Positions 4,883-56,247 of a stretch of DNA of 64,000 bases are shown piece after piece. The stretch comes from a virus (lineage: Duplodnaviria; Caudoviricetes). The notes below the pieces were generated by a model, which saw nothing but the letters and a program-made list of their open reading frames with translations, did not search any database and was not told the DNA's origin. Within the stretch, counting starts at the first letter, position 1, and each line of letters starts with the position of its first letter. The DNA lies in the IMG/VR virus record IMGVR_UViG_3300022723_000184, positions 96,001 to 160,000 of that record; one strand, given 5' to 3'. A program made the position numbers and the translations under genes.

Positions 4883-4917
4883 CAGCTCGTCGGCTTAAAA
4901 GCGAGACAAGGCGAGAC
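4883..4917 (+). repeat. Degenerate solitary CRISPR repeat A (sense, upstream of RBS)
   Basis: CAGCTCGTCGGCTTAAAAGCGAGACAAGGCGAGAC resembles repeat CTGCTCATCGGTTTAGAAGATGAGAC; stem CTCGTC/GGCGAG + AC; 31/35 identical to the copy at 33550 (-). Confidence 0.75.
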
Positions 4918-4931
4918 CTCTGAGGTAGACC

Positions 4932-5408
4932 ATGGGTACCGAACCGAAACCACAGTCCAAGGCCGAGATCGACTCGAACTTCGAGGGTCAGATCAAGAAG
5001 CTGCGTGAGCGGGCCAAGGACGAGGCCGACGCGAAGCTGGGCGGCGACAACGCCCAGTGGAACATCCCGGAGCTGGGCGATTGGGACGGCGACCTGTTCG
5101 CGGTCGAGGAGATCAGCGACGCGTTCAAGCGGGAAGAGGCCAACGAGAAGTTCGAGGAGGCGACCAAGGACTCCAGCTCGCCGGGTGTCGCCGGCGACCT
5201 CGGCGTTACCACACTGCAGGTTGACTACTTGGCCTGCATGGACCGGGCCTTCCGGGCCAGGCACACGATGCGACGGCCCCGGACCATGGCCCACATGACC
5301 GGCCGCCGCAAAGGCCACGGCAACGAGCGAGGTACGCTGACCCAGACGGCGTTGGAGTTCGCCCGCAACCTGCTTAAACAGGCCCAGGCGTCGGGAGGTG
5401 GTAGCTGA
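4932..5408 (+). CDS. Hypothetical protein in baseplate module
   Basis: RBS GAGG; coding-like composition; overlaps next start. Confidence 0.6.
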   Translation: MGTEPKPQSKAEIDSNFEGQIKKLRERAKDEADAKLGGDNAQWNIPELGDWDGDLFAVEEISDAFKREEANEKFEEATKDSSSPGVAGDLGVTTLQVDYLACMDRAFRARHTMRRPRTMAHMTGRRKGHGNERGTLTQTALEFARNLLKQAQASGGGS

Positions 5409-5893
5409 TGACCGTGACCGGATCCGTTGCTGCCTACGCCGATCGTCAGATCGACATGCTGGCTTTCCAGAACCCAGGTATCGGGAGCCTGGAACTGGTC
5501 GACTTGATCCTCGTCCCCGACGGCGGCAGCGGGTTCAGCATCGCCGGCATCGCCAAGCTCGCCCAGCGGTTCTTGATCGAGCTGCTGACTGAGCAGGGAT
5601 CGATCCCGTACGACACGGTCCGCGGCTCGACGTTCCTCACCGAGCTTCGGCAGGGTAGGGTGCGTACGACGCCGGCCGCCGAGACCGCGTTCTACCTGGC
5701 GCTGGACCAGGTGAAGCTCCAGCTGCAGCTGGAGGAGTCCGACGACATGCCCGACGACGAACGGTACGGGCGAACGACCCTCGACTCGATCGTGCTGTCG
5801 CCGGCCGATACGGTAAAACTACGACTGACGTTGTTCAGCTTGGCGGGGACCGGCGTGACGCTGTTGCTCCCGATTGAGACTACGCTTGGATAG
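5408..5893 (+). CDS. Baseplate wedge subunit, gp25/GPW-like
   Basis: LAQRFLIELLTEQGSIPYDTVRGSTF motif; size; precedes baseplate J. Confidence 0.65.
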   Translation: MTVTGSVAAYADRQIDMLAFQNPGIGSLELVDLILVPDGGSGFSIAGIAKLAQRFLIELLTEQGSIPYDTVRGSTFLTELRQGRVRTTPAAETAFYLALDQVKLQLQLEESDDMPDDERYGRTTLDSIVLSPADTVKLRLTLFSLAGTGVTLLLPIETTLG

Positions 5894-5922
5894 TGCCAGC
5901 TCGCTGGCGAATAGAGCGAGAC
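5887..5922 (+). repeat. Degenerate solitary CRISPR repeat B (sense, upstream of baseplate J RBS)
   Basis: TAGTGCCAG-CTCGCT-GGCGAATAG-AGCGAG-AC: same 6-bp stem, 9-nt loop and AC tail as the repeat; three compensatory pairs. Confidence 0.75.
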
Positions 5923-5939
5923 GATAAGGCAGGGAAGCC

Positions 5940-7643
5940 ATGACGATTCAGATCACCAACCTGGACGACGTGAACCAAGAGCTTGTCGCGGACAACCTCG
6001 ACGAGATCATCACGCGCCTGCAAGAAGACAACCCATCACTCGACCTCCGGCGAGGCGTCCTCAAGGACCTGCTTGCCGGCTACCACGCGTCGCTGAGCGC
6101 TGCCGAGCAGCAGACGTTGGCCCGGTACCTCAGCGCCCGGTCGCTGCAGCAGATCGAGGCCGATCCGACGCTGGCCGACGAGGGGGTGACCGACGACGTC
6201 CTCTCCAACTACCGGGTCACCCGGCAGCAGGGGGCTACGGCCCAGGGTGAGATCACGATCGTCGTCAGTCAGAACACCACGGTGGTCATCTCCGAGGGAG
6301 CCATCTTCGAGGCCGACGGGCAGCAGTTCGCTAGCGATTCGGTGTTCACGGCCAAGACCGAGGCCGCCCAGATCAACACGTCGACCGACCGCCTGCTTCA
6401 ACAGCGATCGGACGGCAACTGGTTCTTCACCATCACGGTGACCGCGGCCGAAGTCGGGACCGAGGGGAACATCGCCAAAGACACTTTCATGGTGCCGGCC
6501 GTGCCCCCGCCCAACTACGTCACGTCGTTCGCGACCAACGACTTCGTGAGCGGGACCAACACCGAGACCAACACCCAGCTGCTCCAACGATTGCAGGAGG
6601 GGCTCGCGGCCAGGGCCCCGTCCAACCGCACGAACATGAAGGGGATGCTCCGAGAGATCTCCGACGAGGCGTACGCCGGCAACCTGCATAGCTCGATCGT
6701 CGGGTTCGGCGACGAGGAGATGCTCCGTGACCAGCACACGATCTGGCCCGGCAGCCTGGGCGGGCGCTCCGACTGGTACATTCGCACGGTCGAGCAGCTG
6801 TTCCGGCTGACGCTGCAGCGGGAAGCCACGCTCGTCCAGATCGGGACCCGTGGCGAGCTATCGAATAACTGCTCGCCCGGAGGCCCCAACGCCTCGGACA
6901 TCGTAACGGTCTGGCAGTTCGCCCTGGCCCGCGACGACGCCCCCGGTTTCTACGAGATCCGGACGGTACGCCCCCTGGGATTCGATGAGGCCAGCGGCAG
7001 CTTCGAGATCCTGGCCGACATCCGGGGCCTGGACCTGACGGGCGACGGCTTCGTCCCGGACATCGACACCGTGGAGGAAGGGGCGTACAGCCGCTACCAG
7101 ACCACGGTCATCAAGTTCATTGACGACCAGGTTGACCCGACCACGGTCGCGGTCGGGGACACTAGCGCCTACGACGTGTCAGTGGCCATGATGCCCCAGA
7201 TCGGCGACATCCAGGACGACCTGAACACCCGCGACATCCGCAGCTACGGGTCCGACGTCCTGATCAAGGCCCCGGTACCCTGCTTCGTGTCGCTCTCGTT
7301 CACGATCAACAAACAGAACAACGTGCCGGACCCGGACCTCGATGCGATCAAGACGGCGTTGGCCAAAGAGGTCAACACGATTGCGTTCCTAGGCCGGCTG
7401 TACGCTTCGCAGCTGCACGACGTGATCCAAGGCCTGCTCGGAACCACGACCAGCGCCGGCAAGATCGACATGTTCGGTCGCCTGCGTTACCCGGACGGCA
7501 CGACCAAGTACGTCCGTGACTTTGAGGTGCTGGCGATCGACGGGCCGGCCGGGCAAATGGTCAGCCCGAAGACCGTGCAGTTTTATCTGGACGTCGAGGA
7601 CATCTCGATCTCGATCGCGACCAGCGTCCCCGTGCCCTCTTAA
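5940..7643 (+). CDS. Baseplate J-like protein
   Basis: ATAQGEITIV..VVISEGAIFEADGQQF and ITVTAAEVGTEGNI / GTNTETNTQLLQRL motifs of the baseplate J family. Confidence 0.8.
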   Translation: MTIQITNLDDVNQELVADNLDEIITRLQEDNPSLDLRRGVLKDLLAGYHASLSAAEQQTLARYLSARSLQQIEADPTLADEGVTDDVLSNYRVTRQQGATAQGEITIVVSQNTTVVISEGAIFEADGQQFASDSVFTAKTEAAQINTSTDRLLQQRSDGNWFFTITVTAAEVGTEGNIAKDTFMVPAVPPPNYVTSFATNDFVSGTNTETNTQLLQRLQEGLAARAPSNRTNMKGMLREISDEAYAGNLHSSIVGFGDEEMLRDQHTIWPGSLGGRSDWYIRTVEQLFRLTLQREATLVQIGTRGELSNNCSPGGPNASDIVTVWQFALARDDAPGFYEIRTVRPLGFDEASGSFEILADIRGLDLTGDGFVPDIDTVEEGAYSRYQTTVIKFIDDQVDPTTVAVGDTSAYDVSVAMMPQIGDIQDDLNTRDIRSYGSDVLIKAPVPCFVSLSFTINKQNNVPDPDLDAIKTALAKEVNTIAFLGRLYASQLHDVIQGLLGTTTSAGKIDMFGRLRYPDGTTKYVRDFEVLAIDGPAGQMVSPKTVQFYLDVEDISISIATSVPVPS

Positions 7644-7656
7644 AAAGTACTTTTTA
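7641..7656. promoter_or_regulatory. Palindromic operator-like motif TAAAAAGTACTTTTTA
   Basis: Perfect 16-bp AT-rich palindrome between a stop and a start; core recurs at 29933, 48099, 58170, 62496. Confidence 0.6.
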
Positions 7657-7660
7657 GATC

Positions 7661-9211
7661 ATGGCCGACTTCCTCTATCCGACCAACGACTTCGACCGCC
7701 GCAACCGGCTGCTGGCTGAGGTGGCGTCGTTCTGGAACAACGTGTTCGGGCAGCGGGAGTTTGTCCGCGACATCCTGTTCGCCAAGGGTCAGCTGGAGCA
7801 GCAGACGGTTCAGCAGCTGACCGAGCTGTTCGATTCGGTCAGTCGCTTCAAGCTGCCGCCGTTTCATTTAGAGCGATGGTATCTGATCACGCTGCTGGAG
7901 TCTGACCTCAACCAGGGCAAGGCCGCCCAGCTGCTGTACGACGGTGAGGTCGACTACGACCCGACCGGCCCTTTCAAGTACGGGGTCCCCCGACAGCTCA
8001 ATCAGTTCACGTGGGATGCGCCGGCCGAGCTGGTCGACACCGGTGTCCTGGTCAACCGGATCCACGACGCCAGCCTGACGATGACCCGGGGCGTCGACTT
8101 CCTGTTGGAGGACGGGAGCCTGTTCTTCAGGGAGAACCCGTTCGACAACCCGCTGGTCCCGGTCCGCGACATCGTCGTCGGCCAGGAGGTCGTCGACCGG
8201 CAGATCGGTCTGTGGGTCTTCCAGGCCAAGTTTGACTGGGACTACATCTTCGAGCAGTTCGGGTACGTCATCCAGCTGTCGCTGGAGAGCGGCGACGAAT
8301 ACAAGGGCATGATCAACGCGGTGTTCGACGCCCTGGTCGAGGGCACGACCCAGCGGTCGGTCGAGAACGCCTTCGAGGCGATGACCGGCTCCACCCTGGT
8401 CCAGAACCCGACGGAGACCGTCAAGGCGATCGTCGACGAGCCGGGCAGGCAGCTGGTGATCACCGACCAGGTCGTCTACGAGTACAGCGACCTGGTCAGC
8501 GTCATCGTTTCTGTGGGCGACAAGGTCATCGAGGGCCAGGCTCTGGTCGACACGCTCCAGTTCTTCGAGTTCAACCGGGGCCAGTGTCCGACGCAGGAGC
8601 AGTGCCAGGCGGTCGCCTTGGGTCGTGGTTTCCTGGGTCGCGGGTTCTTCGGTGACCTGGTGTTCGAGAACAAGAGCACGCCACTCGTGGTCGAGACCGA
8701 CGACGAGGGGTACACCAAGGTCAGTTGGGAGATCGGCGGGTTCCCGACCGACGTCGTGAAGTTCTTCGACGACCTGCACGCTAACGGGCTTGCCGCCGGC
8801 CAGACGCTGGCCAACCTGCTCGACACCCGGACCAATAAGGTCGGCGAGCCGCAGGCGAGCAACCTACCGACCACAATCAACCCGTTCGAGTTTCTGTGTC
8901 AGAACGTGCTGAGGAACCACGCCTACCTGGCCAAGATCCGGACGGCCGGCTTCGGGCCGGGCGCCGTGGGCATGAACGCCGGAAAGATCCTGAGAAAGGT
9001 ACATCCACCGCAGACTGCTCTAATTATCGCCGCGGAATTGGCTCACACGGACGATCCGATTATCATGGAAGATCCGGGTACGGAGACCGCGCCGGGCTAC
9101 GAGGAGACCGTCTCGACCTACACCGGAATGGTGCAAGCCGAGACGATTTCACCGGATACGGCGATGGACGAGTGCGTGCGGGTCAAGCTGATCTCGGGCC
9201 GCTGCACCTAA
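7661..9211 (+). CDS. Baseplate wedge protein (tail protein I/gp7-like)
   Basis: Follows baseplate J; 516 aa structural-type composition. Confidence 0.45.
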   Translation: MADFLYPTNDFDRRNRLLAEVASFWNNVFGQREFVRDILFAKGQLEQQTVQQLTELFDSVSRFKLPPFHLERWYLITLLESDLNQGKAAQLLYDGEVDYDPTGPFKYGVPRQLNQFTWDAPAELVDTGVLVNRIHDASLTMTRGVDFLLEDGSLFFRENPFDNPLVPVRDIVVGQEVVDRQIGLWVFQAKFDWDYIFEQFGYVIQLSLESGDEYKGMINAVFDALVEGTTQRSVENAFEAMTGSTLVQNPTETVKAIVDEPGRQLVITDQVVYEYSDLVSVIVSVGDKVIEGQALVDTLQFFEFNRGQCPTQEQCQAVALGRGFLGRGFFGDLVFENKSTPLVVETDDEGYTKVSWEIGGFPTDVVKFFDDLHANGLAAGQTLANLLDTRTNKVGEPQASNLPTTINPFEFLCQNVLRNHAYLAKIRTAGFGPGAVGMNAGKILRKVHPPQTALIIAAELAHTDDPIIMEDPGTETAPGYEETVSTYTGMVQAETISPDTAMDECVRVKLISGRCT

Positions 9212-9224
9212 AGGCAGGGAAGCC

Positions 9225-9815
9225 ATGCAAGAAATCATCCTCCCAAACAAGAGCGTCTCTGGTCGGGTCCGCGCCCACGAGGTTCGTGGCGACGTCTGGG
9301 ACCTTCTGACCGCGTGGGACCACAACCAGGTCCTCTACGGCTGGGGGACCGTGGTCGGCACGCTGCTGACCAAGGGCCTGTCCAACTACCGCATCGGTGG
9401 GATGTACCTGGAATACGAGAACGTCGCGGACCCCGACGACCCGGTGTCGGCCCCGACCTTCGACCGGAGCGGCGGCAAGAGCTACTACGACGGCCTGGGC
9501 CTCAGCGCGACCCGCGACTACCTCCGCGTCCCGCTGACCGCCTCGCTCTTGAGCAGCAGCGATGAGACGCTGTTCCCGGACGGCAACGTGATGACGTTCT
9601 TCGCCCAGTCCCAGGGCGTGACGGGGGCCAACGGCAAGGCGTTCAGCGACACGGTCAACTCCAAGATCTACGGAGGGGCCCTGGTCGCTTTCCTGGATGA
9701 GGCGGACGCGGATCAGGATATCGTCTTCAGCCGCTTCTACTTCTCGGTGGCGAACCAGCAGGTGAAGTTGCCCACCTCCCAGATCGGGTTGGAGTGGGAG
9801 ATCACGCTGCAGTAG
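9225..9815 (+). CDS. Tail/baseplate-associated protein
   Basis: Context; 17-nt RBS/start region identical to that of baseplate J. Confidence 0.45.
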   Translation: MQEIILPNKSVSGRVRAHEVRGDVWDLLTAWDHNQVLYGWGTVVGTLLTKGLSNYRIGGMYLEYENVADPDDPVSAPTFDRSGGKSYYDGLGLSATRDYLRVPLTASLLSSSDETLFPDGNVMTFFAQSQGVTGANGKAFSDTVNSKIYGGALVAFLDEADADQDIVFSRFYFSVANQQVKLPTSQIGLEWEITLQ

Positions 9816-9888
9816 CGGCTAGAGTCACACCTTGTAAGCCGGTGCGCTGGCATGGTGACGCTAGTATAGCTAGATAAGGGGCTCAAGG

Positions 9889-27722: not shown

Positions 27723-28037
27723 ATGGCCACAGCAGCACACAAGCTGGTCGTGATCCAGGACAACACCCTGAAGAACATGGCCAAGCAAACGCGGTTCACC
27801 AAGGAGTTCCCGTTCCTTCAGTCGCTCAACCGACTGAACCAGGGCGCCCCGAAGCGAGGTTGCGGCGGGTGCCGATCGAGCAACAACCGGGTGTCCGAGG
27901 TATTCGCTGCGGCAAAGCGTGCGCTGGCCTCGCTGCCGGCCTCGAAGAAGCGGGTGCTCAAGGAGCTGCTTGGGGCTAAGAAGGTGCGGGTTACCTACCG
28001 TCAAGCAGGCGGGAAGACGGTCGAACTGACCTTTTAA
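27723..28037 (+). CDS. Hypothetical CxxC protein (paralog of 26229-26588)
   Basis: RBS AGGAG; GCGGC motif. Confidence 0.6.
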   Translation: MATAAHKLVVIQDNTLKNMAKQTRFTKEFPFLQSLNRLNQGAPKRGCGGCRSSNNRVSEVFAAAKRALASLPASKKRVLKELLGAKKVRVTYRQAGGKTVELTF

Positions 28038-28138
28038 AGTCACGCCTTTTGAACCGGTATGCCGGCATGTTGACACCAGTACGGCTACCTAAATAAACGT
28101 GTTTTTTGCGTCAAAATACATGCAGGCAAATTAGCCCG

Positions 28139-28174
28139 GTCTCATCTTCTAAACCGATGAGCAGGTATTAAGAT
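28139..28174 (-). CRISPR. Solitary CRISPR repeat C with leader end and -10 box
   Basis: 35/36 identical to the array repeat; preceded on - strand by TATAAT-ACCGAGG, like the array leader TATAAT-GCCGCGG. Confidence 0.92.
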
Positions 28175-28196
28175 CCTCGGTATTATAGCCGAACCG

Positions 28197-29149: not shown

Positions 29150-29185
29150 GACGCAATACCGGCTCATCAGCCGGGAAAACTAGGA
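29150..29185 (+). repeat. Possible decayed solitary repeat D
   Basis: GACGCAATACCGGCTCATCAG.. 22/36 identical to the repeat; 5' half kept, 3' stem arm lost. Confidence 0.4.
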
Positions 29186-29194
29186 GAAGCTATC

Positions 29195-29929
29195 ATGAAG
29201 ACTCTGATCATCGCTATCGCTGCCGTGCTGCTCGTGTGTCCGGCGTTCGGGCAGGAGCAGGAGACGAAACTTCAATCACTCGGCGCTCGTCGGGCCATGG
29301 TCCGCTACAAGGCCAAGGTCGCGAACGCAGAGCGCCTGTACAAGGCCGCACTGTTGCGAGCGGCGAAAGACCTGAAAGAAGAACTTCAAGCCGACCTCAT
29401 CAAGGTTACGAAGACCGGCAACCTGGAGTCCGCCAACCAGGTGAAGGCCGAGCTGGATCGCATTCAGGCGGAAATCGAAAAGATGACCAACCCTGACGCT
29501 AAGCCGAGCAATACGCCCAGCGACTCCGTTGAAATCACTGAGGGCGATCCGAATGTCAAAGTCGGGAAACTCAAGCCCACTCGCGACTGGTGGACGCTCG
29601 CCCAACTCAAAGCAGGTGACAAAGTTTACTTCCGGGCGGCTGGAACATGGGAGATCTTTGGCGTCGGCACCTGCGGGCCTGACGGCGGCCGTGGAAGCAA
29701 GGGCGACAAGAACGACCCGCTCCCCGGCGCTCCAGTGGGCGCAATTCTCGGCAGGCTTCCTGGCTCCACCGACGAGAAGCGGGCTACTGGCTTTGTGATT
29801 GGGCGCAGCGCCGTATTCACTGCCAAGGAGGATGGCGCGTTCCAGCTTCGCGTCAACAAGACGAGCGGCTACATCTACAAGTGCGATGGCGAACTGGCCT
29901 ACAAAGTCAAGGTCGTTCCAGCCAACTGA
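29195..29929 (+). CDS. Secreted protein: signal peptide, coiled coil, C-terminal PA-IL/LecA-like lectin fold
   Basis: KAGDKVYFRAAGTW..CGPDG..PLPGAPVGAILG..FVIG..GAFQLRVN pattern. Confidence 0.6.
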   Translation: MKTLIIAIAAVLLVCPAFGQEQETKLQSLGARRAMVRYKAKVANAERLYKAALLRAAKDLKEELQADLIKVTKTGNLESANQVKAELDRIQAEIEKMTNPDAKPSNTPSDSVEITEGDPNVKVGKLKPTRDWWTLAQLKAGDKVYFRAAGTWEIFGVGTCGPDGGRGSKGDKNDPLPGAPVGAILGRLPGSTDEKRATGFVIGRSAVFTAKEDGAFQLRVNKTSGYIYKCDGELAYKVKVVPAN

Positions 29930-29932: not shown

Positions 29933-29946
29933 AAAAAGTACTTTTT
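29933..29946. promoter_or_regulatory. Palindromic motif AAAAAGTACTTTTT
   Basis: Second copy; abuts solitary repeat E. Confidence 0.6.
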
Positions 29947-29979
29947 AAAATACCCGCATATCGGCTTAAAAGATATGAC
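29944..29979 (+). repeat. Degenerate solitary CRISPR repeat E (sense, upstream of RBS)
   Basis: AAATACCCG-CATATC-GGCTTAAAA-GATATG-AC; 25/36 identical; two compensatory pairs. Confidence 0.85.
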
Positions 29980-29995: not shown

Positions 29996-30190
29996 ATGCT
30001 GTGCGCTACCGAAGGCAAGGCGTGCGTCCTCGTCGGATTCATCGCCACACTCGCAGGGATCATCGTGGCAGCGTACACCACGCCGCTAACCGGGATCGCC
30101 TGGGGCATGGTTGCTCTGCTGGGCCTGTTGGCCTGGGTGAACACCAAGCTCGAACCCGCGGACCGCGATGGTCCCGGGAAACGAAACTAA
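29996..30190 (+). CDS. Small two-TM membrane protein
   Basis: RBS GGGAGG; two hydrophobic segments; 64 aa. Confidence 0.6.
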   Translation: MLCATEGKACVLVGFIATLAGIIVAAYTTPLTGIAWGMVALLGLLAWVNTKLEPADRDGPGKRN

Positions 30191-32875: not shown

Positions 32876-33351
32876 GTCACGTTGTTGAGACCGAACCTGA
32901 CGGCCCTGACCAGGGCATCAGAGACCTATACGTGTTGAAGAAGGCCGCAGAACGCTGCGGCCTTGTCTTTAACGAGGGACAGACGCATTTCAGAACTTGG
33001 GCCGACGACCACAACGGTCGTCTGGTCGGGGACTGGCCGCTGCCTGAGGGCCGGACGCTGGACGACGTGGGTAAGTGCGCCCACGCCCTTAGCCTGCCGA
33101 ACGCCGCCAAGTCAGGCGTCGACAGCTACGAGATCGGCGTGGTGGAGTCTAAGAAACATCCGGGCACCTATTCGTTGATGTACGACTTCTGGCGTGGTGC
33201 CCTGGAGAAGAAGGCCGGCAACTGGTGCGAGGACCTGCTGATGTACTACCAGATGGAGGCCGCGAAGCTCGCGGCCGAGGAGCAGGACCATACGTACGTC
33301 GAAGAACAGCTGGCGGACGGGACCTTCGTGGCCCGGGTAGAGGTGAACTGA
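32872..33351 (+). CDS. DUF1257-like protein
   Basis: HALSL..YEIGV..YSLMYDFW pattern; synteny with DUF2997-like and Ycf46-like genes. Confidence 0.6.
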   Translation: MSHVVETEPDGPDQGIRDLYVLKKAAERCGLVFNEGQTHFRTWADDHNGRLVGDWPLPEGRTLDDVGKCAHALSLPNAAKSGVDSYEIGVVESKKHPGTYSLMYDFWRGALEKKAGNWCEDLLMYYQMEAAKLAAEEQDHTYVEEQLADGTFVARVEVN

Positions 33352-33545
33352 TGCCAGAGATCAAGTTCCACTTCCAGAAGGGCGGCAAGGTCAACATGGA
33401 GGTCAACGGGGTGAAGGGAGAAGGCTGCCGCACCCTGACCGCCGCGTACCGCGAGAAGATGCTCGGCATGGTGACGTCGGACGAGCCGACTGACGAGATG
33501 TACGAGGCCGAGACGGAAAACGAACAGGAGCACGAGCACGGATGA
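33351..33545 (+). CDS. DUF2997-like small protein
   Basis: GKVNMEVNGVKGEGCRTLT..LG motif. Confidence 0.65.
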   Translation: MPEIKFHFQKGGKVNMEVNGVKGEGCRTLTAAYREKMLGMVTSDEPTDEMYEAETENEQEHEHG

Positions 33546-33549: not shown

Positions 33550-33588
33550 GTCTCGCCTTGTCTTGCCTTTAAGTCGGCGAGCTGCATT
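33550..33588 (-). repeat. Degenerate solitary repeat F with own -10 box (TAGAAT, 33595-33600)
   Basis: - strand AATGCAG-CTCGCC-GACTTAAAGGCAAGACAA-GGCGAG-AC; 31/35 identical to copy A. Confidence 0.75.
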
Positions 33589-33615
33589 GTCCGTATTCTA
33601 CTCAGGTGAGTCTAG

Positions 33616-37829: not shown

Positions 37830-38020
37830 GCCTTGGCGCTGGCGGCAGAATGTCGTGGTCGCGGTCGCGGTCGTGGTCGCGGTCGTGGTCGTGGTCGTGG
37901 TCGCGGTCGTGGTCGGGGTCGCGGTCGTGGTCGCGGTCGTGCTCGGGGTCGCGGTCGTGGTCGCGGTCGTGGTCGCGGTCGTGGTCGTGGTCGCGGTCGG
38001 GGAGCGACAACAACCGATAG
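37826..38020 (+). CDS. Ser-Arg/Ser-Trp dipeptide-repeat peptide
   Basis: ATGA overlap with previous gene; stop overlaps next RBS. Confidence 0.55.
   Translation: MSLGAGGRMSWSRSRSWSRSWSWSWSRSWSGSRSWSRSCSGSRSWSRSWSRSWSWSRSGSDNNR
37853..38002 (+). repeat. Hexanucleotide tandem repeat TCG(C/T/G)GG, ~25 units
   Basis: Directly visible 6-nt periodicity. Confidence 0.95.
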
Positions 38021-38034
38021 GAGTGTTTAGACCC

Positions 38035-38454
38035 GTGAAGCACGAAAACCAGTGCAGCTATTCCCGCTGCCGATACGAGTATGAATTGCGGCTGATTTAT
38101 GCCAACGTGCAGCTGTGCAACAAGCACTGGTCCCAGCTCTGCGACATCGAGCTGGACCTGGAAGGCCGCACGGCTGCCAAGGTCCTGCAAGCGGAGCGGG
38201 CCTGCCTCAAGTTCTTCGCCAAGTGCGGATCCCGCAAAGCCAAGCGCCTGCTGGACAAGCTGAACGCAGACCCGGACGCCTACACCCTGCAGCACGTAGG
38301 AACCAGGGGCCTGACCGTCGCGGAATACATCGCGTCGCTCGCCCGCCCCGTGGAAGAGCCTACCCCCGTCGAGGAGGACGAGGCCGATGACTCAGACGAG
38401 TTCGGCGGTATCTCCGGTTACATCGAAGATCCCGCGAGTGGTCCTGTTCTTTGA
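38035..38454 (+). CDS. Hypothetical Cys-containing protein
   Basis: RBS AGGAG; GTG start; acidic tail. Confidence 0.5.
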   Translation: MKHENQCSYSRCRYEYELRLIYANVQLCNKHWSQLCDIELDLEGRTAAKVLQAERACLKFFAKCGSRKAKRLLDKLNADPDAYTLQHVGTRGLTVAEYIASLARPVEEPTPVEEDEADDSDEFGGISGYIEDPASGPVL

Positions 38455-39160: not shown

Positions 39161-40048
39161 TTGGCCAAACGCAAGTTCACGATGCACGAGCAGATGATCT
39201 TCGACGTAATCCGCAAACAGGCGGGCACGCTGTCGAAGGCGGCGTTGGAAGGCGTGATGAACGCCGTCGACGCCAACGCCTCCGAGATCAAGATCACGCT
39301 CGACGAGGGCAGGATGACCCTGTCCGACGACGGTAAGGGGTTCCGGTCCAAGAAGGAGATCGAAGACTACTTCGAGACCTTCGGCCGACCTCACACAGAG
39401 CAAGAGCAGAAGGTCTTCGGCAAGTTCCGTATGGGTCGCGGGCAGATGTTCGCGTTCGGCAGGAACCTGTGGGAGACCGGACGATTCCGGATGGACGTCG
39501 ACGTCAAGGACAAGGGCCTGGATTACGACCTGAAGGAGCTGTCCGAGAAGGAGCGGGCGCCCGGTTGCTCGATCACGATCGAGCTGTACGACCAGTTGCT
39601 GCCGAGTGACGTCGACAAGACGGTCAGGGACCTGGAGCTGTGGTGCAAGTGGGCGCCGCTCCGTGTGGTGCTCAATGACCGGGAGATCAGTTCGGATCCC
39701 GCTGCCCAGGAGTGGCAGTACGAGACGGACGAGGCCTACGTCAGTCTGACGGGTGTCGGCGGTCTGACGATCTACAACCAGGGCGTGTTCGTCATGGACA
39801 TTCCGGCCTACCGGTACGGGACGGGCGGCGAGGTCGTGACCAAGATGGGTCAGGATCTTGACGTCAACTTCGCCCGCAACGACATCCTGGCTTCGTGCCC
39901 GATCTGGAAGAAGGTCTCGCCCTTCATCGACCAGCGGGCCACGGAGAAGAACACCAAGAAGCGGGCCCTGGACGACGGCGCCCGCCAGAGGCTGGCCCAC
40001 CAGTTGAAGGCCGGCGAAGAGATCGAGTCTCATCTTCTAAACCGATGA
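39161..40048 (+). pseudogene. GHKL (HSP90/MORC/rIIA-like) ATPase, truncated by a CRISPR repeat
   Basis: EGVMNAVDA, DDGKG, GKFRMGRG motifs; last 7 codons come from the inverted repeat; likely C-terminal remnant at 40077-40130. Confidence 0.7.
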
Positions 40049-40062
40049 GCAGGTATTAAGAT
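40027..40062 (-). CRISPR. Solitary CRISPR repeat G with leader end and -10 box (TACAAT, 40070-40075)
   Basis: 35/36 identical to the array repeat; 46 nt identical to copy C. Confidence 0.92.
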
Positions 40063-40139
40063 CCTCGGTATTGTAGTCTAGCAAGAAGGACTTCGTGTTC
40101 GACTGGATCAAGAACATCATGCTCATTTAGGAGGTTGTT

Positions 40140-40406: not shown

Positions 40407-41074
40407 AAGGGGTCGGATACGCGGCCTAACCAGTTTACCACCGTCGGGCCGAGGTGGTAGGCGGCGGTCTGCTCCATGTAGACCACGCGATCGCGTTCGG
40501 CCCACTGCTTCGCAAATTGGATGTCGCAGGTCTCGGCGGTCTGAAACCGTTCGGGGTACGGCTTCCGTTGCGAGGTGTGGTAGAGCTGGAAGTAGCCTCG
40601 GACCAGGCCGTGCTCGAAGGCGGCTGAGTCCGGGGGGATGTACGCCAGGCGGGTGTGATACGGGATGAACGGGTCGGCCTGCTTGATCGCATAGCGAGAG
40701 GGTACGACGAACCTTGGCGCCCCGTACAGCTTAGTAGGGTCAGGGACGACCCGGTGCAGTTGGTCGATCGTCTTCTCGGGGATCACGATGTCCGCGTCCA
40801 GGTGTAGTATCCAACCAGGGGACGCATCGAAGATGCCAGCGCACCGGCTTAGCAGGTGCGACAGTGCCTTGCCCTTGTTGAACGGTGCACCGCCCTCGTA
40901 GAAGGCGTCGGTGCGGACAAGAGAAAAGCCCAGGTCCTTGCAGACCTGGGCCGTGTGTTCGTCTTGGTTGTCGGTCACGACGACGACCCTGGGGGTCAGC
41001 CGCTTCCAGGACAGGCCGGCGATCTCCAGGGTGTCGGCGTAGTTGACGCTGACACTGACGATCGTCGGCTGCAT
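40403..41074 (-). CDS. Glycosyltransferase, GT-A fold
   Basis: VSVSVNYADTL..VVTDNQD..FNKGKAL..ILHLDADI. Confidence 0.8.
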   Translation of the reverse strand: MQPTIVSVSVNYADTLEIAGLSWKRLTPRVVVVTDNQDEHTAQVCKDLGFSLVRTDAFYEGGAPFNKGKALSHLLSRCAGIFDASPGWILHLDADIVIPEKTIDQLHRVVPDPTKLYGAPRFVVPSRYAIKQADPFIPYHTRLAYIPPDSAAFEHGLVRGYFQLYHTSQRKPYPERFQTAETCDIQFAKQWAERDRVVYMEQTAAYHLGPTVVNWLGRVSDPF

Positions 41075-42243
41075 CAGTAGGTGACACCCGCGGCGTGGAG
41101 CAGTTCGTCGGAGACCCGGTCCGGCTCGCTGGCCGCTTTGGTCATGATCGGGGCGATGCCCGCCTCGGTCGCGAGCTTGTCGAACAGCTCGGCGTCGTCC
41201 CGAGGCATGGTCTCGGCGATCTCCGCGAGCTTCTCGGCGTCGACGTTGTCCAGGCCCCCGGAGACCTCGTTGGCGACGTCGGAACCGAACAGGTTCTGGA
41301 TGTCGGCCAGCTTGATCTTGCCGAAGTCGTTCTTCGAGTAGATGTTGCCCGTAAGCATGGCGCAGGAGCCCTCGACCGCGGCCCTGGCCTCTTTGTAGGT
41401 GGCCTTGAAGATCACGTCCTCGGGCCGGGGCAGGGTGTCGGTGTACCGGCCGGCCAGGTTCATGGCCCGGTCCATGATGTCGACGGTCTCCGCCAGCTTG
41501 ACCAGGGCCTCGGGGACCAGGGCGTGACGGGGCTTGGAGGCCACGGTCTCCGCCAGCTTCATGATCGCCTCGCGGTGCTCGGCCGTCTTGGCCAGGCGGG
41601 CCCGGTTCGTCAGCATGGCGACCACGTCGTGGGGGTTGCACACCCCGTGGCCGGCCTGCTTCTCGATGAAGTTCTCGTGCTGGCCGAGGCCGGCGCCGTA
41701 CCGGGCGGCCTTCTCCAGGATCTTCTTGGCGATGACGTTGCGGTCGGAGAACGGCAGCTGGTCCCGGTACTGGGCCAGCCAGTCGGCGGCGGCCCGGACC
41801 TCCTGAGCGTTCTTGATCCGGAGGTTGCGGACCTTGGAGCCGTCGTCGCCCGTCCAGACGTAGGCGAAGTCCTCGTCCGGCAGCTGGTCGTCGGCGTTCT
41901 TGGTCAGCTCGACCTCGCGGGTGGCCAGCTCGTCGCAGGCCCCCTTGATGCCCCAGTACTTGGCGAAGTGATCAAGGCGTTGCTTGATGTGCGCCTGCTT
42001 CGTAGGATTGTACCCTGCCTTCTTATCGTGGAAGTACAGGTGGCTGAGCCAGGTCGACGCGGAATTGTGGCAAGGGTACCGCCTGTTCAGCTCGTCGCCG
42101 TAGACCGTCGGCGGGAGGTCCTGGGGCCGCATGGTCTGATCCATGTTGGCCTGTTTCACGAACCCGGGGATCGGGTAGAGTTTGGAGAGACGGTGAAGTT
42201 CTGCCCCGTTCGCGTCAGAGACGTGGTCGAAGGTCGTGCTCAT
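41074..42243 (-). CDS. Hypothetical protein (possibly head-associated)
   Basis: RBS GAGGT; 389 aa; high GC3 on - strand; TGATG coupling to the GT gene. Confidence 0.65.
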   Translation of the reverse strand: MSTTFDHVSDANGAELHRLSKLYPIPGFVKQANMDQTMRPQDLPPTVYGDELNRRYPCHNSASTWLSHLYFHDKKAGYNPTKQAHIKQRLDHFAKYWGIKGACDELATREVELTKNADDQLPDEDFAYVWTGDDGSKVRNLRIKNAQEVRAAADWLAQYRDQLPFSDRNVIAKKILEKAARYGAGLGQHENFIEKQAGHGVCNPHDVVAMLTNRARLAKTAEHREAIMKLAETVASKPRHALVPEALVKLAETVDIMDRAMNLAGRYTDTLPRPEDVIFKATYKEARAAVEGSCAMLTGNIYSKNDFGKIKLADIQNLFGSDVANEVSGGLDNVDAEKLAEIAETMPRDDAELFDKLATEAGIAPIMTKAASEPDRVSDELLHAAGVTY

Positions 42244-50491: not shown

Positions 50492-50494
50492 CGG

Positions 50495-51393: not shown

Positions 51394-51444
51394 TCGTCGT
51401 TAAAAACAACAAGGTTGTCTACGACGGGCCGTTAGGAGTGCAGG

Positions 51445-52140: not shown

Positions 52141-52475
52141 TGGCTCACTTCTATGGCACCGTCGATGGGCGGAGCCGGACGGAAGGGACCAGATGCGGGA
52201 CCCGGTCATCGGGTCTCCGGACGGTGGCCGCCAGCTGGGCGGGCGCCGTACAGGTCAACCTTTACATCGACGAGAACGGGGCCGATTGCTGCGAGATCCG
52301 CTTCATCCGCTGGGAAGGTTGCGGAACCGACAAGCTGGTCTACGACGGTCCGATCGACCCTGGTGATCAGATCTCCGACCTCCTCGACCAGATCAAGGAG
52401 GAGCGGACGCTGCATCACGAAGACATCAACAAGCCGGGTCCCCGGCGTAAGGTACGGAGAGGAGCGATCACATGA
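52140..52475 (+). CDS. Hypothetical protein
   Basis: TAATG coupling. Confidence 0.6.
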   Translation: MAHFYGTVDGRSRTEGTRCGTRSSGLRTVAASWAGAVQVNLYIDENGADCCEIRFIRWEGCGTDKLVYDGPIDPGDQISDLLDQIKEERTLHHEDINKPGPRRKVRRGAIT

Positions 52476-52915: not shown

Positions 52916-53315
52916 GCCCGGGATCAACCCGGCCACCCTGCGGCCCTCCAAGACGGCGGCCGGCAACTTGCTGTGCCTGACGATCTCCAGGATGGTCATC
53001 GGGAACAAGGACCAGTTCGTGCGGCGAGTGCAGTTGTCGCTGTTCGACGAGAAGACCGAGTTGTCCGTAGGCTTCGCCATGTTCCCGGAGGACCAGTTCA
53101 TCGACGCCCTGGGACACCTGTTCCCTCGGGGCGAGTTGGACGGCGCCAACCTGGAAGACGGGCCGGAGGACGTCGAACAGCTCAACAAAGAGCTGGACGG
53201 CCTCAACGACCTGATCGATGGCAACGCCTTCAACAAGGACTCTGAGAGATACCGGGCCATGGCCCGGCAGGCCGAAATCCGCGAGATCCTGGCCGAACTA
53301 AGAGAAAACACATGA
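52902..53315 (+). CDS. Hypothetical protein
   Basis: RBS GGAGG. Confidence 0.6.
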   Translation: MPKHKPGINPATLRPSKTAAGNLLCLTISRMVIGNKDQFVRRVQLSLFDEKTELSVGFAMFPEDQFIDALGHLFPRGELDGANLEDGPEDVEQLNKELDGLNDLIDGNAFNKDSERYRAMARQAEIREILAELRENT

Positions 53316-53339
53316 GCCATTTTGTGGCTTTGGTGTTCA

Positions 53340-53550
53340 CAGACCGTGAGCCCGACCAGCACAGGTTGCAGGAAAGCCGGTCGAGTTGGAGTTCGACGGC
53401 CACGGCGGCCCCGGGTCGGCCCTCGGGGGCTGGCGGATCCTGACCGAGGTCCTCTGATGACCCTGTTCTCGGAGCGGGCCACCCGAAGGGCCTACTGGGC
53501 CCTGGGTGGTCCGGAGAACAACCGCTGCTGGCGGCCGAGTCGCCAACAGG
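53340..53550 (+). ncRNA. Candidate structured leader RNA upstream of cas12m
   Basis: GC-rich non-coding stretch with nested stems TGTTCTC/GAGAACA, GGCCACCC/GGGTGGTC, AGGGCC/GGCCCT. Confidence 0.4.
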
Positions 53551-53575
53551 CTGCTCATCGACAAGAGGATGAGAC
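53551..53575 (+). repeat. Degenerate solitary repeat H in the cas12m 5' UTR
   Basis: CTGCTCATCG-ACAAGAG-GATGAGAC: first 10 and last 8 nt identical to the repeat 3' part; exactly 20 nt before the ATG. Confidence 0.88.
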
Positions 53576-53595
53576 AAAAAAAAAAGGAATAGCGC

Positions 53596-55365
53596 ATGGG
53601 ATTCAATAAGGACCCAGAGGCCCGCTGTGTGGTTTACCAGTACGGCGGCAAACATCCGACGGAAAACGAAGACGAAGCGATCAACCAGCTCGCCAAGGCG
53701 AACCGTTTTCGGAACCGGCTCGTTGAGTTGGAGCTACAACGACGTGAAGAATACCACGCTGCGTTCTCGGGTTACGGAGACCTGGCGGAGCCGTCAAATC
53801 AGCTTGAGACGCTCAACGAGCAGCTGACCGCTGCGGTGGCAGAACTTAAGGCGTGGAGACAATTGAACGGCACTCGAAGTCAACACCCGACGCTAACCCC
53901 GCAGATCGTTTCGCTACGGGCTCAGGCTCGCCAGCTACGGACACAGATCAAGTCGATCAAGGAAGCGGCCAAAGGCGATCCTACGGTGCAGGCGGCAATC
54001 GAAAAAGCAAACCAGCAGCACCGAGATCAGACCAAAGCTGCGTACGGCGCTGTAAGAGAATCGAACCCGGAGGCCGAGGACGCCAGAGACCGGCATGGGT
54101 TGTTCTGGGGAACGGCCCTCCTAGTTCAAAGGGCAGCGACACAGTTCCAGAAGGGCCCTCCCCCGAGGTACAAACGTTTCGACGGGACGGGAACTATCGG
54201 CGTGCAGCTGCAGAACGGGATGTCTGTGGAGGATCTGTTCACTCCGGGCGGCAGCGTCTGGATTGACCCCGTTCCTCCGGAGGCCTGGGACCCGCAGACG
54301 CCGAGAGGTCAAAGGCGAAAACTCGCAAGAACGATGCTACACATGCGGATCGGCGGGAAGCCGCAGGCCTGGGTGATTCTAAAGCTACCTGTCACCGTGC
54401 ACAGACCGCTGCCTGCAGGAAAACTTATCAAGTGGGTCACGGTCACTCGGCGTAAGTACGGTTCACAGGCGCGGTGGTATGTAAACGTCACGACGGATAT
54501 CAGGTCTGGTGGCACGCTTCACGATGATGTTGCGGCTGCCGGATTTGTGGGTGTCGACCTGGGTTTCAGGTTGTTCAAGCCCGCAGAAAGCAGCTCAGGC
54601 AAGCGATCGCTCCGAGTGGCTGTATGGGCCGGAGATGACGGGGAGACAGGCGAACTTCGCCTCGACGCGAGGTTTATGTCCTACATCTCAAAGGCCGACG
54701 GTTTGAGGTCGATCCGGGACAAGCGGCTTGATCAGATCAGAGCGGCGCTGCTTCCGTTGTGTGACGAGGCGGGTACGCCGGAGTGGTGGAAAGACGACAC
54801 TCAACACATGGCCAAATGGAGGTCTCCTCGAAAGCTGTATCACTTGCTCCACAAGTGGAAAGACAACAGGTGGGATGGCGACAAAACGCTGTTCGATCTG
54901 TTGGTTAAGTGGGTAGTTCAGGACCGTCACCTCCACGTGTGGGAAGCCAACAATCGCCGAAAAGTAGCGGCTCGTCGCCTGGACATGTACCGGAACCTGG
55001 CGGCCTCTTTGAGGCGCAAGTACGCGGTTATCGGGATCGAAGACATCGATTGGCGGATCTGGAGCAAGTTGGCCCTGCCCGAAGAAGAGGAGACCAAGTC
55101 AAAGAAGTTCCGTGTTCAAAAGAAACATGCGGCGGTCGGTCTGCTTGCAGAGACGCTGTCGAATTGCGGGGCACAGGTTGTACGTTTGGATCCCGCTTAC
55201 ACGACGAAGCGGTGCAACGCCTGCGGCAAGATCACCGAATTTGACGCTGACCGGCACCTGCGACATACGTGCGAACATTGCCATGCGGAGTGGGACCAAG
55301 ACTACAATGCGGCAAAGAACCTGCAAGACATGGCGAGCGGCAACGCCGTAACGCAAACCGCGTAG
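53596..55365 (+). CDS. cas12m: Type V-M CRISPR effector Cas12m-like (589 aa)
   Basis: LFWGT, RYKRFDGTGTIGVQLQ, VHRPLP, KWRSPRKL, EANNRRK motifs as in Cas12m; RuvC D321/E482/D569; CNAC..CEHC zinc finger; adjacent array. Confidence 0.88.
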   Translation: MGFNKDPEARCVVYQYGGKHPTENEDEAINQLAKANRFRNRLVELELQRREEYHAAFSGYGDLAEPSNQLETLNEQLTAAVAELKAWRQLNGTRSQHPTLTPQIVSLRAQARQLRTQIKSIKEAAKGDPTVQAAIEKANQQHRDQTKAAYGAVRESNPEAEDARDRHGLFWGTALLVQRAATQFQKGPPPRYKRFDGTGTIGVQLQNGMSVEDLFTPGGSVWIDPVPPEAWDPQTPRGQRRKLARTMLHMRIGGKPQAWVILKLPVTVHRPLPAGKLIKWVTVTRRKYGSQARWYVNVTTDIRSGGTLHDDVAAAGFVGVDLGFRLFKPAESSSGKRSLRVAVWAGDDGETGELRLDARFMSYISKADGLRSIRDKRLDQIRAALLPLCDEAGTPEWWKDDTQHMAKWRSPRKLYHLLHKWKDNRWDGDKTLFDLLVKWVVQDRHLHVWEANNRRKVAARRLDMYRNLAASLRRKYAVIGIEDIDWRIWSKLALPEEEETKSKKFRVQKKHAAVGLLAETLSNCGAQVVRLDPAYTTKRCNACGKITEFDADRHLRHTCEHCHAEWDQDYNAAKNLQDMASGNAVTQTA

Positions 55366-55439
55366 CCGATCGATCTGTAGTGTGTACAAGTAGTTGTGGC
55401 GGCTACGGAGGGCCGCTGCACTTCTGTCAAGGGTGCCGA

Positions 55440-55502
55440 CGATCGAACCGCTCGAAAACGGCCTGATAACCATGTACGCACGTGTAGGTTATAATGCCGC
55501 GG
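55440..55502 (+). promoter_or_regulatory. CRISPR leader with -10 box TATAAT (55490-55495)
   Basis: TATAAT 7 nt before repeat 1; same end motif at solitary repeats C and G. Confidence 0.7.
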
Positions 55503-56247
55503 ATCGTAATACCTGCTCATCGGTTTAGAAGATGAGACGCGGCATTGATTGCCTTCTTGAGTTGCTGCTCCAACATCGTAATACCTGCTCATCGGTTTAG
55601 AAGATGAGACATCGCCGCATCGCTGGAAGCGGGCGTGGCGTCGGCGGATCGTAATACCTGCTCATCGGTTTAGAAGATGAGACCTTTCTCTGTGTCCGAG
55701 ATAACGGGGTCACTAATGTCATCGTAATACCTGCTCATCGGTTTGGAAGATGAGACAAGCATCCGAGCAGCCGCTACAAGGACAAGATCGGCATCGTAAT
55801 ACCTGCTCATCGGTTTAGAAGATGAGACTAGTCGGGCAATTGCTCGAACGGCACAGAGATATCGTCATCGTAATACCTGCTCATCGGTTTAGAAGATGAG
55901 ACGCTTACCGGTGGCCGAGGCCAAGGCGCGATGGAGAACATCGTAATACCTGCTCATCGGTTTAGAAGATGAGACACGGTGGATCCGGTCGAGCGGCTGA
56001 TCCTTCACATCATCGTAATACCTGCTCATCGGTTTAGAAGATGAGACCCGGTGATCGACGCGGTCCTCGAGAACGCCGAGGACATCGTAATACCTGCTCA
56101 TCGGTTTAGAAGATGAGACAAGTGGATCAGGTTCTTCTCATCGTAATACCTGCTCATTGGTTTAGAAGATGAGACGCGGACTGCCCCGAGATGCGGCGCC
56201 GGCTGTGGGTAATCGTAATACCTGCTCATCGGTTTGGAAGATGAGAC
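55503..56247 (+). CRISPR. CRISPR array: 11 x 36-nt repeats ATCGTAATACCTGCTCATCGGTTTAGAAGATGAGAC, 10 spacers
   Basis: Repeats start at 55503, 55575, 55648, 55721, 55793, 55867, 55940, 56012, 56084, 56140, 56212; spacers 36-38 nt except spacer 9 (20 nt); 3' hairpin CTCATC/GATGAG + AC. Confidence 0.99.

Follow-up and report, generated by a model that had tools for sequence, protein, structure and literature searches.

Type V-M CRISPR-Cas systems (Wu 2022; Omura 2023; Bigelyte 2024) and the phage MV-1 locus (10.64898/2026.09.14.751636) comprise a compact effector, Cas12m, and an adjacent array, and lack adaptation genes. Their crRNA carries a stem and a pseudoknot, by which Cas12m2 recognises it (PMC10442227). 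PmCas12m cuts after repeat nucleotides 2-3 and at guide nucleotides 17-18, which yields a 17-nt guide (bioRxiv 10.64898/2026.03.26.714355). Dispersed repeats have been reported for none of these systems; the MV-1 preprint, which styles its 610-aa protein the first phage Cas12m, does not mention them (10.64898/2026.09.14.751636). Single repeats outside an array, some of them self-promoted, are known from other systems as solitary repeat units (SRUs) or mini-arrays (Faure 2019; Medvedeva 2019; Shmakov et al. 2023, 10.1101/2023.03.03.530964). They occur in one or few copies, mostly in cas or anti-CRISPR loci, and between about one third and one half of V-A loci have them upstream of cas12a (10.1101/2023.03.03.530964).

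The DNA analysed here is a window of 64 kb, which is part of a complete phage genome of ~202 kb. Positions refer to the window unless the genome is named. The window contains a locus of the same architecture:

53596-55365, plus strand: cas12m, 589 aa, PF07282 at E 3e-13
55490-55495, plus strand: TATAAT box of the array leader, 7 nt ahead of repeat 1
55503-56247, plus strand: CRISPR array with 11 repeats (36 nt each) and 10 spacers, one of which has only 20 nt

The cas12m product shows homology to Cas12m along the entire protein and has a RuvC domain and a zinc-ribbon (TNB) C-terminus; residues 14-578 were aligned to the Cas12m structure 23vw (E 6e-67), and Cas12m2 (8hhl) was matched with E 1.5e-26. 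The array begins 137 nt past cas12m, and its 11 repeats contain the stem and pseudoknot scaffold, as in other type V-M systems. In the whole ~202-kb genome, both cas12m and the array are single; cas12m is the sole match to PF07282 and the sole TnpB/Cas12-type gene, and a search of the genome did not find Cas1.

An earlier note on this DNA had claimed that the Cas12m repeat hairpin recurs singly at eight further places in the window. A covariance model was built from the repeat copies, and the window was scanned with filters off. The scan of the whole genome and its relatives that the note had proposed was also carried out. At least 18 SRUs were detected genome-wide, 10 within the window and 8 outside it. 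These 18 scored 23.7-49.7 bits, compared to at most 17.5 bits for noise, and the exact 23-nt repeat core had zero chance matches in shuffled sequence. The solitary copies are genuinely homologous to the Cas12m repeat, as had been proposed. They lie outside the array, mostly without a second repeat at spacer distance; the only pair among the 18 is located at 28139 and 28039, 64 nt apart. Seven of the eight listed copies were borne out with 26.8-45.7 bits (E <= 1e-4; next match 13.6 bits), namely 4873-4907(+), 5887-5922(+), 28139-28174(-), 29944-29979(+), 33560-33594(-), 40027-40062(-) and 53541-53575(+). The model does not detect the eighth copy (29150), which consists of a 5' half-repeat only; its earlier label "decayed" is fair. 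Three SRUs of the window had been missed: 9824-9859(-), 28039-28074(-) and 40827-40862(+).

In 29 related phage records (3.8 Mb), neither a PF07282 gene nor a model match at E <= 0.1 was found, whereas the positive control, the phage's own genome, gave 30 model matches. Similar hairpins in relatives lacking cas12m, which according to the earlier note would have spoken against its claim, were thus looked for and are missing from all 29 records, and the claim survives. The matching gaps of G001, a relative with conserved synteny (112 of 223 genes in common), and those of four further relatives contain no SRU. For example, the recA-like gene of the relatives is preceded by terminator, Shine-Dalgarno sequence (SD) and ATG, whereas the cas12m phage has an SRU between terminator and SD. 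Dispersed copies are likewise absent from two other phage-like Cas12m contigs (Rctr197k and 21.7 kb around the closest Cas12m homologue), and they are no general trait of Cas12m systems in phages. No cas12m-bearing close relative turned up; among the genomes compared, SRUs are restricted to one cas12m-bearing lineage.

The 36-nt scaffold shared by repeats and SRUs consists of a 6-bp stem and a 3-bp pseudoknot, in which positions 9-11 pair with the three bases that open the loop. Five of the six stem pairs are changed on both sides, and ~96.5% of the cells are paired, a level reached by 0 of 500 shuffles (slid controls, 23-44%). The three pseudoknot pairs all covary among the copies. At three further Cas12m loci, the repeats show pseudoknot covariation as well, so that stem and pseudoknot covary across four loci. 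G13, C14 and G34-A35-C36 are invariant in every copy, and even the most diverged SRUs keep pseudoknot and GAC. These data confirm the earlier statement that compensatory stem changes go along with a kept tail. The covarying stem and pseudoknot and the invariant GAC further show that the whole Cas12m guide-RNA scaffold, and not merely a hairpin, is under selection in the SRUs.

The SRUs are located at gene boundaries: the midpoints of 14 of the 18 are non-coding, compared to 7.7% of the genome (P 6e-13). Part of this placement is explained by the fact that inserts into a 92%-coding genome persist mainly in gaps. For random placement inside their own gaps, the finding that all seven sense SRUs lie within 24 nt of an ATG has a P of ~0.0035. 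The 3' ends of these seven precede the start codon by 11-24 nt, and the SD therefore falls where a 17-nt guide would be; it lies inside guide nucleotides 1-17 in six of the seven leaders. The sense SRUs carry no promoter boxes and are located downstream of terminators. The window contains the following sense copies:

4873-4917, plus strand: SRU, 41.3 bits, 3' arm duplicated, ATG at 4932
5887-5922, plus strand: SRU, 37.4 bits, 17 nt to the ATG at 5940
29150-29169, plus strand: half-repeat remnant before the gene at 29195, ~15 of 17 bases of the repeat 5' half
29944-29979, plus strand: SRU, 42 bits, 16 nt to the ATG at 29996
53541-53575, plus strand: SRU of the cas12m leader, 26.8 bits (E 1e-4), 20 nt to the ATG

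The measured spacings agree with the proposal that sense copies stand immediately 5' of the SD/start region. The values of 17, 16 and 20 nt were reproduced; the 14 nt claimed for SRU 4873 apply if the distal GAGAC is taken as 3' arm, and the distance is 24 nt from the proximal arm. A placement over ribosome-binding sites, as asserted for the copies in general, holds for seven of the 18 and fails for the other 11, which are antisense and aimed into gene 3' ends, a placement that the earlier interpretation leaves unexplained. The gap of G001 that matches SRU 4873 has 4 nt only. In SRU 5887, which precedes a baseplate-wedge-like gene, the stem is fully compensated (CTCGCT/AGCGAG); in SRU 29944, located directly 3' of a AAAAAGTACTTTTT motif, two stem pairs are compensated (CATATC/GATATG). 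The stem of the cas12m-leader SRU is identical to that of the array repeat, and its pseudo-guide consists of an A10 run and the SD. The half-repeat at 29150 gives no model match at E <= 5 and has lost the scaffold.

The 11 SRUs that are antisense to local genes hug the upstream stop codon, and most of them possess a copy of the array -10 box. Those of the window are:

9824-9859, minus strand: SRU, 44.2 bits, TATACT box upstream, stem compensated (CGCACC/GGTGTG)
28039-28074, minus strand: diverged SRU, 23.7 bits (E 6.5e-4), 64 nt downstream of the 28139 unit
28139-28174, minus strand: leader-like cassette, 45.7 bits, 35/36 of the repeat, TATAAT at 28182-28187 with 7 nt spacing
33550-33594, minus strand: SRU, 28.8 bits, 3' arm duplicated, same subfamily as 4873
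40027-40062, minus strand: leader-like cassette, 45.7 bits, 35/36 of the repeat, TACAAT at 40070-40075
40827-40862, plus strand: SRU, 40.1 bits, stem compensated (CGCACC/GGTGCG)

The guides of SRU 9824, which is absent from the G001 gap, and of SRU 33550 span the stop codons of genes 9225-9815 and 33351-33545, respectively. Cassette 28139 and SRU 28039 form a two-unit mini-array aimed at the end of gene 27723-28037, the guide of the latter beginning 1 nt from the stop codon; the cassette is missing from a paralogous gap at genome 189125. A truncated GHKL-ATPase gene (39161-40048), whose G001 orthologue is ~280 aa longer, takes its stop codon from the repeat of cassette 40027, and the guide of this cassette is antisense to that gene. 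SRU 40827 lies on the plus strand within a minus-strand gene block and is therefore antisense to the local genes; it is aimed at a terminator on the minus strand (40927-40952) and at the end of gene 41074-42243.

In six minus-strand SRUs, the repeat is preceded by a -10-like box at a distance of 5-7 nt, exactly 7 nt in five cases, which is the geometry of the array leader. This is in line with the promoter-driven mini-guides suggested earlier, as two of the listed copies are leader-like, with -10 box and repeat in this arrangement. A sigma-70 -35/-10 promoter was not called at any cassette; transcription of the minus-strand SRUs is thus suggested solely by their likeness to the array leader. 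Moreover, the cassettes belong to three duplicated families, with identical or near-identical pairs at genome 5222/7620 and window 28139/40027, and their promoter boxes are therefore not independent observations.

We consider the chances to be even that the phage has turned its own Cas12m guide-RNA scaffold into a dispersed regulatory element. Each SRU-bearing transcript would then be bound by the phage Cas12m and probably also be cut, like a pre-crRNA, near the repeat 5' end and ~17-18 nt into the "guide". If trimming at 17-18 nt can be extrapolated to this enzyme, the spacings of 11-24 nt predict a cut within ~7 nt of each start codon. Given these spacings, the stretch held as guide would be the SD/start region. 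Bound Cas12m would make this region inaccessible to ribosomes, and trimming at the 3' side would detach it from the reading frame. The outcome would be a Cas12m-dependent repression of seven genes: cas12m itself (autoregulation), one RecA/UvsX-like gene, one baseplate-wedge-like gene and four small ones of unknown function. The antisense SRUs, mostly copies of the array -10 box plus first repeat, would act as one-guide crRNA genes without closing repeat, transcribed into the 3' end of the adjacent gene. Binding and cutting of SRU RNAs by Cas12m, and repression rather than activation, are what we infer from the sequence. Thermodynamically, the hairpins are unremarkable (z -2.5 to +1.2), and only four of the seven sense leaders have the repeat stem as their lowest-energy fold; both findings count against this explanation, as does the lack of dispersed copies in the two other Cas12m contigs.

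Alternatively, all SRUs could be single-guide crRNA genes that direct Cas12m to DNA in trans, its classical role, against the host or against competitors among near-identical phages; the start-codon position of the sense copies would be a by-product of where insertion is possible. Leader-like cassettes exist, terminator-like ends are seen in two free-standing units (genome 163592 and window 28139), and Cas12m silences transcription by binding to DNA (PMC11013384, PMC10442227). Mini-arrays that viruses use against their relatives are also known. However, every guide is the phage's own flanking sequence, and the guides span stop codons and gaps, which are the least conserved parts. Elsewhere in the phage genome, no guide matched with up to 3 mismatches per 20 nt apart from two exceptions, a paralogous motif with seed mismatches and a ribosome-binding-site look-alike; a partial match to a promoter beside a PAM, as is typical of CreR and crlRNAs, was not among them. 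The free-standing guide had no exact match in 185,579 genomes. The array spacers had no significant match in five relatives, none of them strain-level, or in the sequence collections tried, of which IMG/VR was searched with two spacers. The sense SRUs, finally, follow terminators and lack promoter boxes. We consider trans guides an unlikely explanation.

It is improbable that the guides bind their own encoding locus in the phage DNA and form programmable roadblocks or terminators where genes start and end. The antisense SRUs are flush with stop codons in an almost entirely one-stranded genome, Cas12m blocks RNA polymerase (PMC11013384), and self-binding by a non-cutting effector is not lethal. 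Yet the PAM position at each site is occupied by GAC, the end of the repeat, whereas the PAMs on record for Cas12m are YTN, TTN or TTV, and by equal logic the array would silence itself. In addition, the RuvC triad D-E-D looks intact and canonical in the alignment, and it is thus not assured that this Cas12m leaves DNA uncut.

We assign a small probability to Racr-like RNA decoys or sponges that titrate Cas12m, be it the phage's own or that of a host system with the same repeat. Phage solitary repeats do act as RNA anti-CRISPRs (PMC10651486), and a conserved scaffold with seemingly arbitrary guides would fit; but effector and full array are both phage-borne, and decoys do not need a fixed distance to start or stop codons. 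There is similarly little to commend non-functional relics, that is, repeat and leader fragments that were spread by recombination and are tolerated in gaps and mark rearrangement scars. The duplicated cassettes, the location of one cassette at the break of the truncated GHKL gene, the decay visible at 29150 and the judgement of Shmakov et al. that many SRUs are spurious duplications (10.1101/2023.03.03.530964) favour this view, whereas the five compensated stem pairs, the pseudoknot and GAC kept in the most diverged copies and the non-random placement contradict it. Ordinary, Cas12m-independent mRNA hairpins (stabilisers, host-RNase processing sites or terminators) would form in plus-strand transcripts from either orientation and suit cistron boundaries, but are very improbable given 6-bp stems no stabler than shuffles, strand-specific conservation of unpaired flanks, pseudoknot and GAC, and the absence of the elements from the 29 relatives without cas12m.

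With regard to the regulatory reading, we consider it possible, though tentatively, that a CRISPR effector was recruited as a sequence-specific regulator that binds and processes its carrier's mRNAs. The scaffolds would act in cis from within the mRNA leaders, with the ribosome-binding site held or cut off, in a phage-wide regulon that includes cas12m and gains members by insertion of a 36-57-nt repeat or leader-repeat cassette, without spacer acquisition. If true, a natural DNA-targeting class 2 effector would regulate mRNA via the crRNA handle inside a virus, and the known range of CRISPR protein functions would be widened. New guides would arise by a Cas1-Cas2-free route, in which the repeat moves to the sequence and not the sequence to the array, and a compact "handle in the leader" switch would suggest itself to those who wish to control translation synthetically. 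The system lends itself to direct tests, since the protein, 18 natural variants of the RNA that include compensatory mutants, and clear cut-site predictions are in hand.

We found no published description of dispersed repeats that accompany a phage's own Cas12m at gene boundaries. CreR/CreA, scaRNA, tracr-L and crlRNAs (10.1101/2024.12.27.630466) are alike in that a Cas effector regulates genes, cas autoregulation included, via repeat-derived RNAs, as is proposed here. These RNAs act in trans on promoters by partial complementarity beside a PAM, whereas the sense SRUs are embedded in the mRNA itself, with the ribosome-binding site in guide position and no trans target found in the genome. Racrs (Camara-Wilpert et al. 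2023, PMC10651486) are also phage-encoded solitary repeats that mimic crRNA scaffolds; however, they inhibit a host system, whereas this phage encodes the matching Cas12m and array and its SRUs do not qualify as Racrs. The endoribonuclease RegB and the repressor RegA of T4 (PMC3014915) cut in or cover the SD/start region of a set of phage mRNAs, with autoregulation. The effect of Cas12m at SRUs would resemble theirs, a likeness of geometry alone; the proteins are unrelated, and RegA and RegB read short sequence motifs instead of a crRNA scaffold. Among known SRUs, those upstream of cas12a resemble the copy before cas12m. Unlike the SRUs described so far, those of this phage are spread in 18 copies across a 202-kb genome together with their cognate effector, are located at start and stop codons and have diverged in a compensatory manner.

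The genome contains a single cas12m gene (matches to PDB Cas12m 23vw, E 6e-67, and to Cas12m2, E 1.5e-26), and a CRISPR array of 11 repeats lies 3' of it. No Cas1 was found in the phage genome. Spacer 9 of the array (window 56120-56139) comprises 20 nt, compared to 36-38 nt for the remaining spacers. An exact-core search detected two perfect repeat copies outside the array, where zero are expected by chance, and a whole-genome structural scan added many further copies. An alignment of 17 copies was used to build a covariance model, with which the whole genome was searched; for the window, the search was also performed with all filters off. The model recovered the 11 array repeats and 18 solitary repeat units (SRUs, single repeat copies outside the array), 10 in the window and 8 elsewhere in the genome.

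Cas12m locus and SRUs identified by the covariance model (genome: coordinates of the whole record)
window 53596-55365, cas12m gene
3' of cas12m, CRISPR array, 11 repeats
window 4873, plus strand, SRU
window 5887, plus strand, SRU
window 9824, minus strand, SRU
window 28039, minus strand, SRU
window 28139, minus strand, SRU
window 29944, plus strand, SRU
window 33560, minus strand, SRU
window 40027, minus strand, SRU
window 40827, plus strand, SRU
window 53541, plus strand, SRU
genome 5222, minus strand, SRU
genome 7620, minus strand, SRU
genome 46773, minus strand, SRU
genome 53583, minus strand, SRU
genome 67849, plus strand, SRU
genome 72751, plus strand, SRU
genome 163592, minus strand, SRU
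genome 174582, plus strand, SRU

The SRUs scored 23.7-49.7 bits; below them, one weak match reached 17.5 bits and the remainder was noise of at most 14 bits. The copy that the earlier note had placed at 29150 is indeed repeat-derived, but it is a half-repeat remnant and not a full unit. A second Cas12/TnpB gene, considered as the user of a diverged SRU subfamily, is absent from the genome.

The window spans positions 96001-160000 of an IMG/VR virus record of 201,946 bp. The record was deduced to be a complete genome, terminally redundant or circularly assembled, because its first 149 bases recur at its end (genome 1-149 and 201798-201946, one mismatch); despite this recurrence, its classification is linear with no end repeats. 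A codon-usage gene caller of our own yielded 223 genes, almost all on the plus strand, and 92% of the genome is coding. Further genes encode pieces of an intein-rich multisubunit RNA polymerase, a RecA/UvsX-like protein and a baseplate wedge. A tandem repeat with about 12 copies of a 12-nt (or 18-nt) unit (window 37852-37999) is located at the start of the ORF at 37855-38454.

The SRU alignment was analyzed for signs of selection on the RNA. In the stem, five of six pairs are altered on both sides and 96.5% of the cells are paired; this level of covariation was reached in none of 500 shuffles, and pairing fell to 19-47% in a slid-partner control. Furthermore, repeat positions 9-11 can form a 3-bp pseudoknot with the first three loop bases. 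The corresponding pairs are GCC/GGC in most SRUs and ACC/GGU in the array; in other Cas12m loci they are GCU/AGC (two loci) and AGA/UCU (Rctr197k, another Cas12m-bearing phage). All three pairs are altered on both sides in the joint alignment. No copy deviates at G13, C14 or the terminal GAC. Cas12m2 recognizes its crRNA via the stem and the pseudoknot (PMC10442227). An energy-based fold test gave no support of its own, as hairpin stability did not exceed that of shuffled sequences. Judged from the covariation and the invariant positions, the SRUs preserve the features read by the Cas12m protein, and not only a hairpin.

The placement of the SRUs is non-random: the midpoints of 14 of the 18 are non-coding, compared to 7.7% of the genome (P = 6e-13). 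The earlier note had proposed that the phage uses its own Cas12m on solitary repeats over ribosome-binding sites. Seven plus-strand SRUs are located in leaders, and their 3' ends are 16, 12, 24, 17, 16, 20 and 11 nt 5' of the ATG (P about 0.0035 under random placement within their own gaps); the distance of 24 nt becomes 14 nt if a duplicated distal arm is taken as the end. The first 17 nt past the GAC contain the Shine-Dalgarno sequence in six of these leaders. Purified PmCas12m cuts after repeat nucleotides 2-3 and at guide nucleotides 17-18, which yields a 17-nt guide (10.64898/2026.03.26.714355). If the phage enzyme behaves like PmCas12m, its 3' cleavage site would be no more than about 7 nt away from the respective start codon. 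According to PHROG and Pfam annotation, the SRU-flanking genes share no common functional class.

The remaining 11 SRUs are antisense to the surrounding genes; ten are minus-strand copies and one is a plus-strand copy inside a minus-strand block. All ten minus-strand SRUs adjoin or overlap the stop codon of the upstream plus-strand gene, and in three cases the repeat itself supplies this codon. Two genes with SRU-supplied ends were compared as candidate paralogues and are not paralogous. Six minus-strand SRUs are preceded by a -10-like box (TATAAT, TACAAT, TATACT or TACACT) 5-7 nt before the repeat, with a spacing of exactly 7 nt in five of them. They share the geometry of the array leader, two also its extended box TAYAATRCCG, and they can be grouped into three families of duplicated cassettes, 52-70 nt long. 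A sigma-70 consensus scan called no promoter at any boxed cassette, which is not surprising because the phage has its own polymerase. We infer that the boxed minus-strand SRUs are transcribed; the leader-repeat cassettes in antisense orientation resemble crRNA genes with a single guide.

Several LAGLIDADG/Hint inteins split genes with RNA polymerase domains and helicase/primase-like genes (genome 40873-44877 and 46858-53604), and the 2248-aa gene among them is flanked by two antisense SRU cassettes. Two identical 57-nt cassettes in direct orientation (box plus repeat, genome 5222-7668) bracket a block of three genes, including a sulfotransferase-like one, in a region without homologues in the syntenic, cas12m-free relative G001. 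SRUs may additionally act as sites at which accessory genes recombine. The palindrome AAAAAGTACTTTTT with the core AAAAGTRCTTTT occurs 11 times in the genome (window 7643, 29934, 48100 and 62497; genome 659, 10520, 29722, 46825, 64003, 176721 and 185327), mostly in gaps 7-51 nt 5' of plus-strand starts and often overlapping the preceding stop codon. One half of it belongs to two SRU cassettes, and G001 contains a similar motif. The palindrome probably functions as a promoter or operator specific to the clade.

The 20 nt 3' of each SRU match nothing else in the genome except in two cases: an intergenic motif that is paralogous and carries two mismatches in the seed, and a look-alike of a ribosome-binding site. 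The array spacers have no match in the phage's own genome and no significant one in five relatives, two of them have none in IMG/VR, and one spacer and one free-standing SRU guide have none among 185,579 genomes. At each SRU's own locus, the PAM position is occupied by GAC, whereas the PAMs of characterized Cas12m enzymes are YTN/TTN (10.64898/2026.03.26.714355). The antisense cassettes may provide guides against strain-level rivals, self-directed roadblocks, or antisense RNAs with a Cas12m handle.

Searches for close relatives found none among GenBank phages (DNA or RecA-like protein) and none in IMG/VR (single-protein search). Scans for the repeat pattern in IMG/VR and in metagenome contigs also yielded no relative; apart from chance matches, they gave one small array accompanied by a Cas12m fragment (contig L027) and one solitary copy (L029). 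The latter (SDBT01226636.1, 2270-2305; 45.6 bits with model R2) is located on an unrelated 2.5-kb metagenome contig without array or cas gene, 33 nt 5' of an ATG with AGGAGG. RecA-like homologues define a clade of 180-240-kb phages. In 29 related IMG/VR records (3.8 Mb in total) from an alignment-based scan, neither a PF07282 gene nor a covariance-model match at E <= 0.1 was found; the same search route gave 30 matches in the phage's own genome. G001 is collinear with the phage (112 of 223 genes matched), and its gaps corresponding to SRU-bearing ones contain no SRU. For example, the order 5' of the RecA-like gene is terminator-SRU-SD-ATG in the phage, compared to terminator-SD-ATG in G001 and four other relatives. 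The GHKL-type ATPase gene (window 39161-40048) stops exactly at an SRU cassette and lacks about 280 codons relative to its orthologue in G001, whose extra residues have no counterpart in the phage genome. The cassette at window 28139 is missing from a paralogous gap of the same genome. An intergenic motif of 29 nt occurs at window 28108-28136 and at genome 189125-189153, with 28 of 29 positions identical. At both sites it is followed by a terminator ending in TTTTTCTTTTCAC, and the cassette separates motif and terminator in the window copy only. The SRU-free gaps of the relatives and the cassette-free paralogous gap indicate that the SRUs are lineage-specific insertions that co-occur with cas12m. 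Two other phage-like contigs with Cas12m contained no dispersed repeat copies: Rctr197k, searched over its entire genome, and the contig (87 kb) of the closest Cas12m homologue (46% identity), searched over 21.7 kb around the gene.

In the best-supported reading, all of whose mechanistic steps are proposed, Cas12m would bind and process the transcripts bearing the scaffold. For the seven leader SRUs, the translation initiation region would be hidden by binding or cut off by processing, and the predicted control would include cas12m itself. A preprint of September 2026 has described another protein as the first phage Cas12m (10.64898/2026.09.14.751636). SRUs and mini-arrays, Racrs and CreR/crlRNA regulators are known; in the literature on these elements and on Cas12m, we found no description of repeat scaffolds that are distributed over a whole genome at the boundaries of genes. 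With respect to the proposed control of translation initiation regions of phage mRNAs, Cas12m would resemble RegA/RegB.
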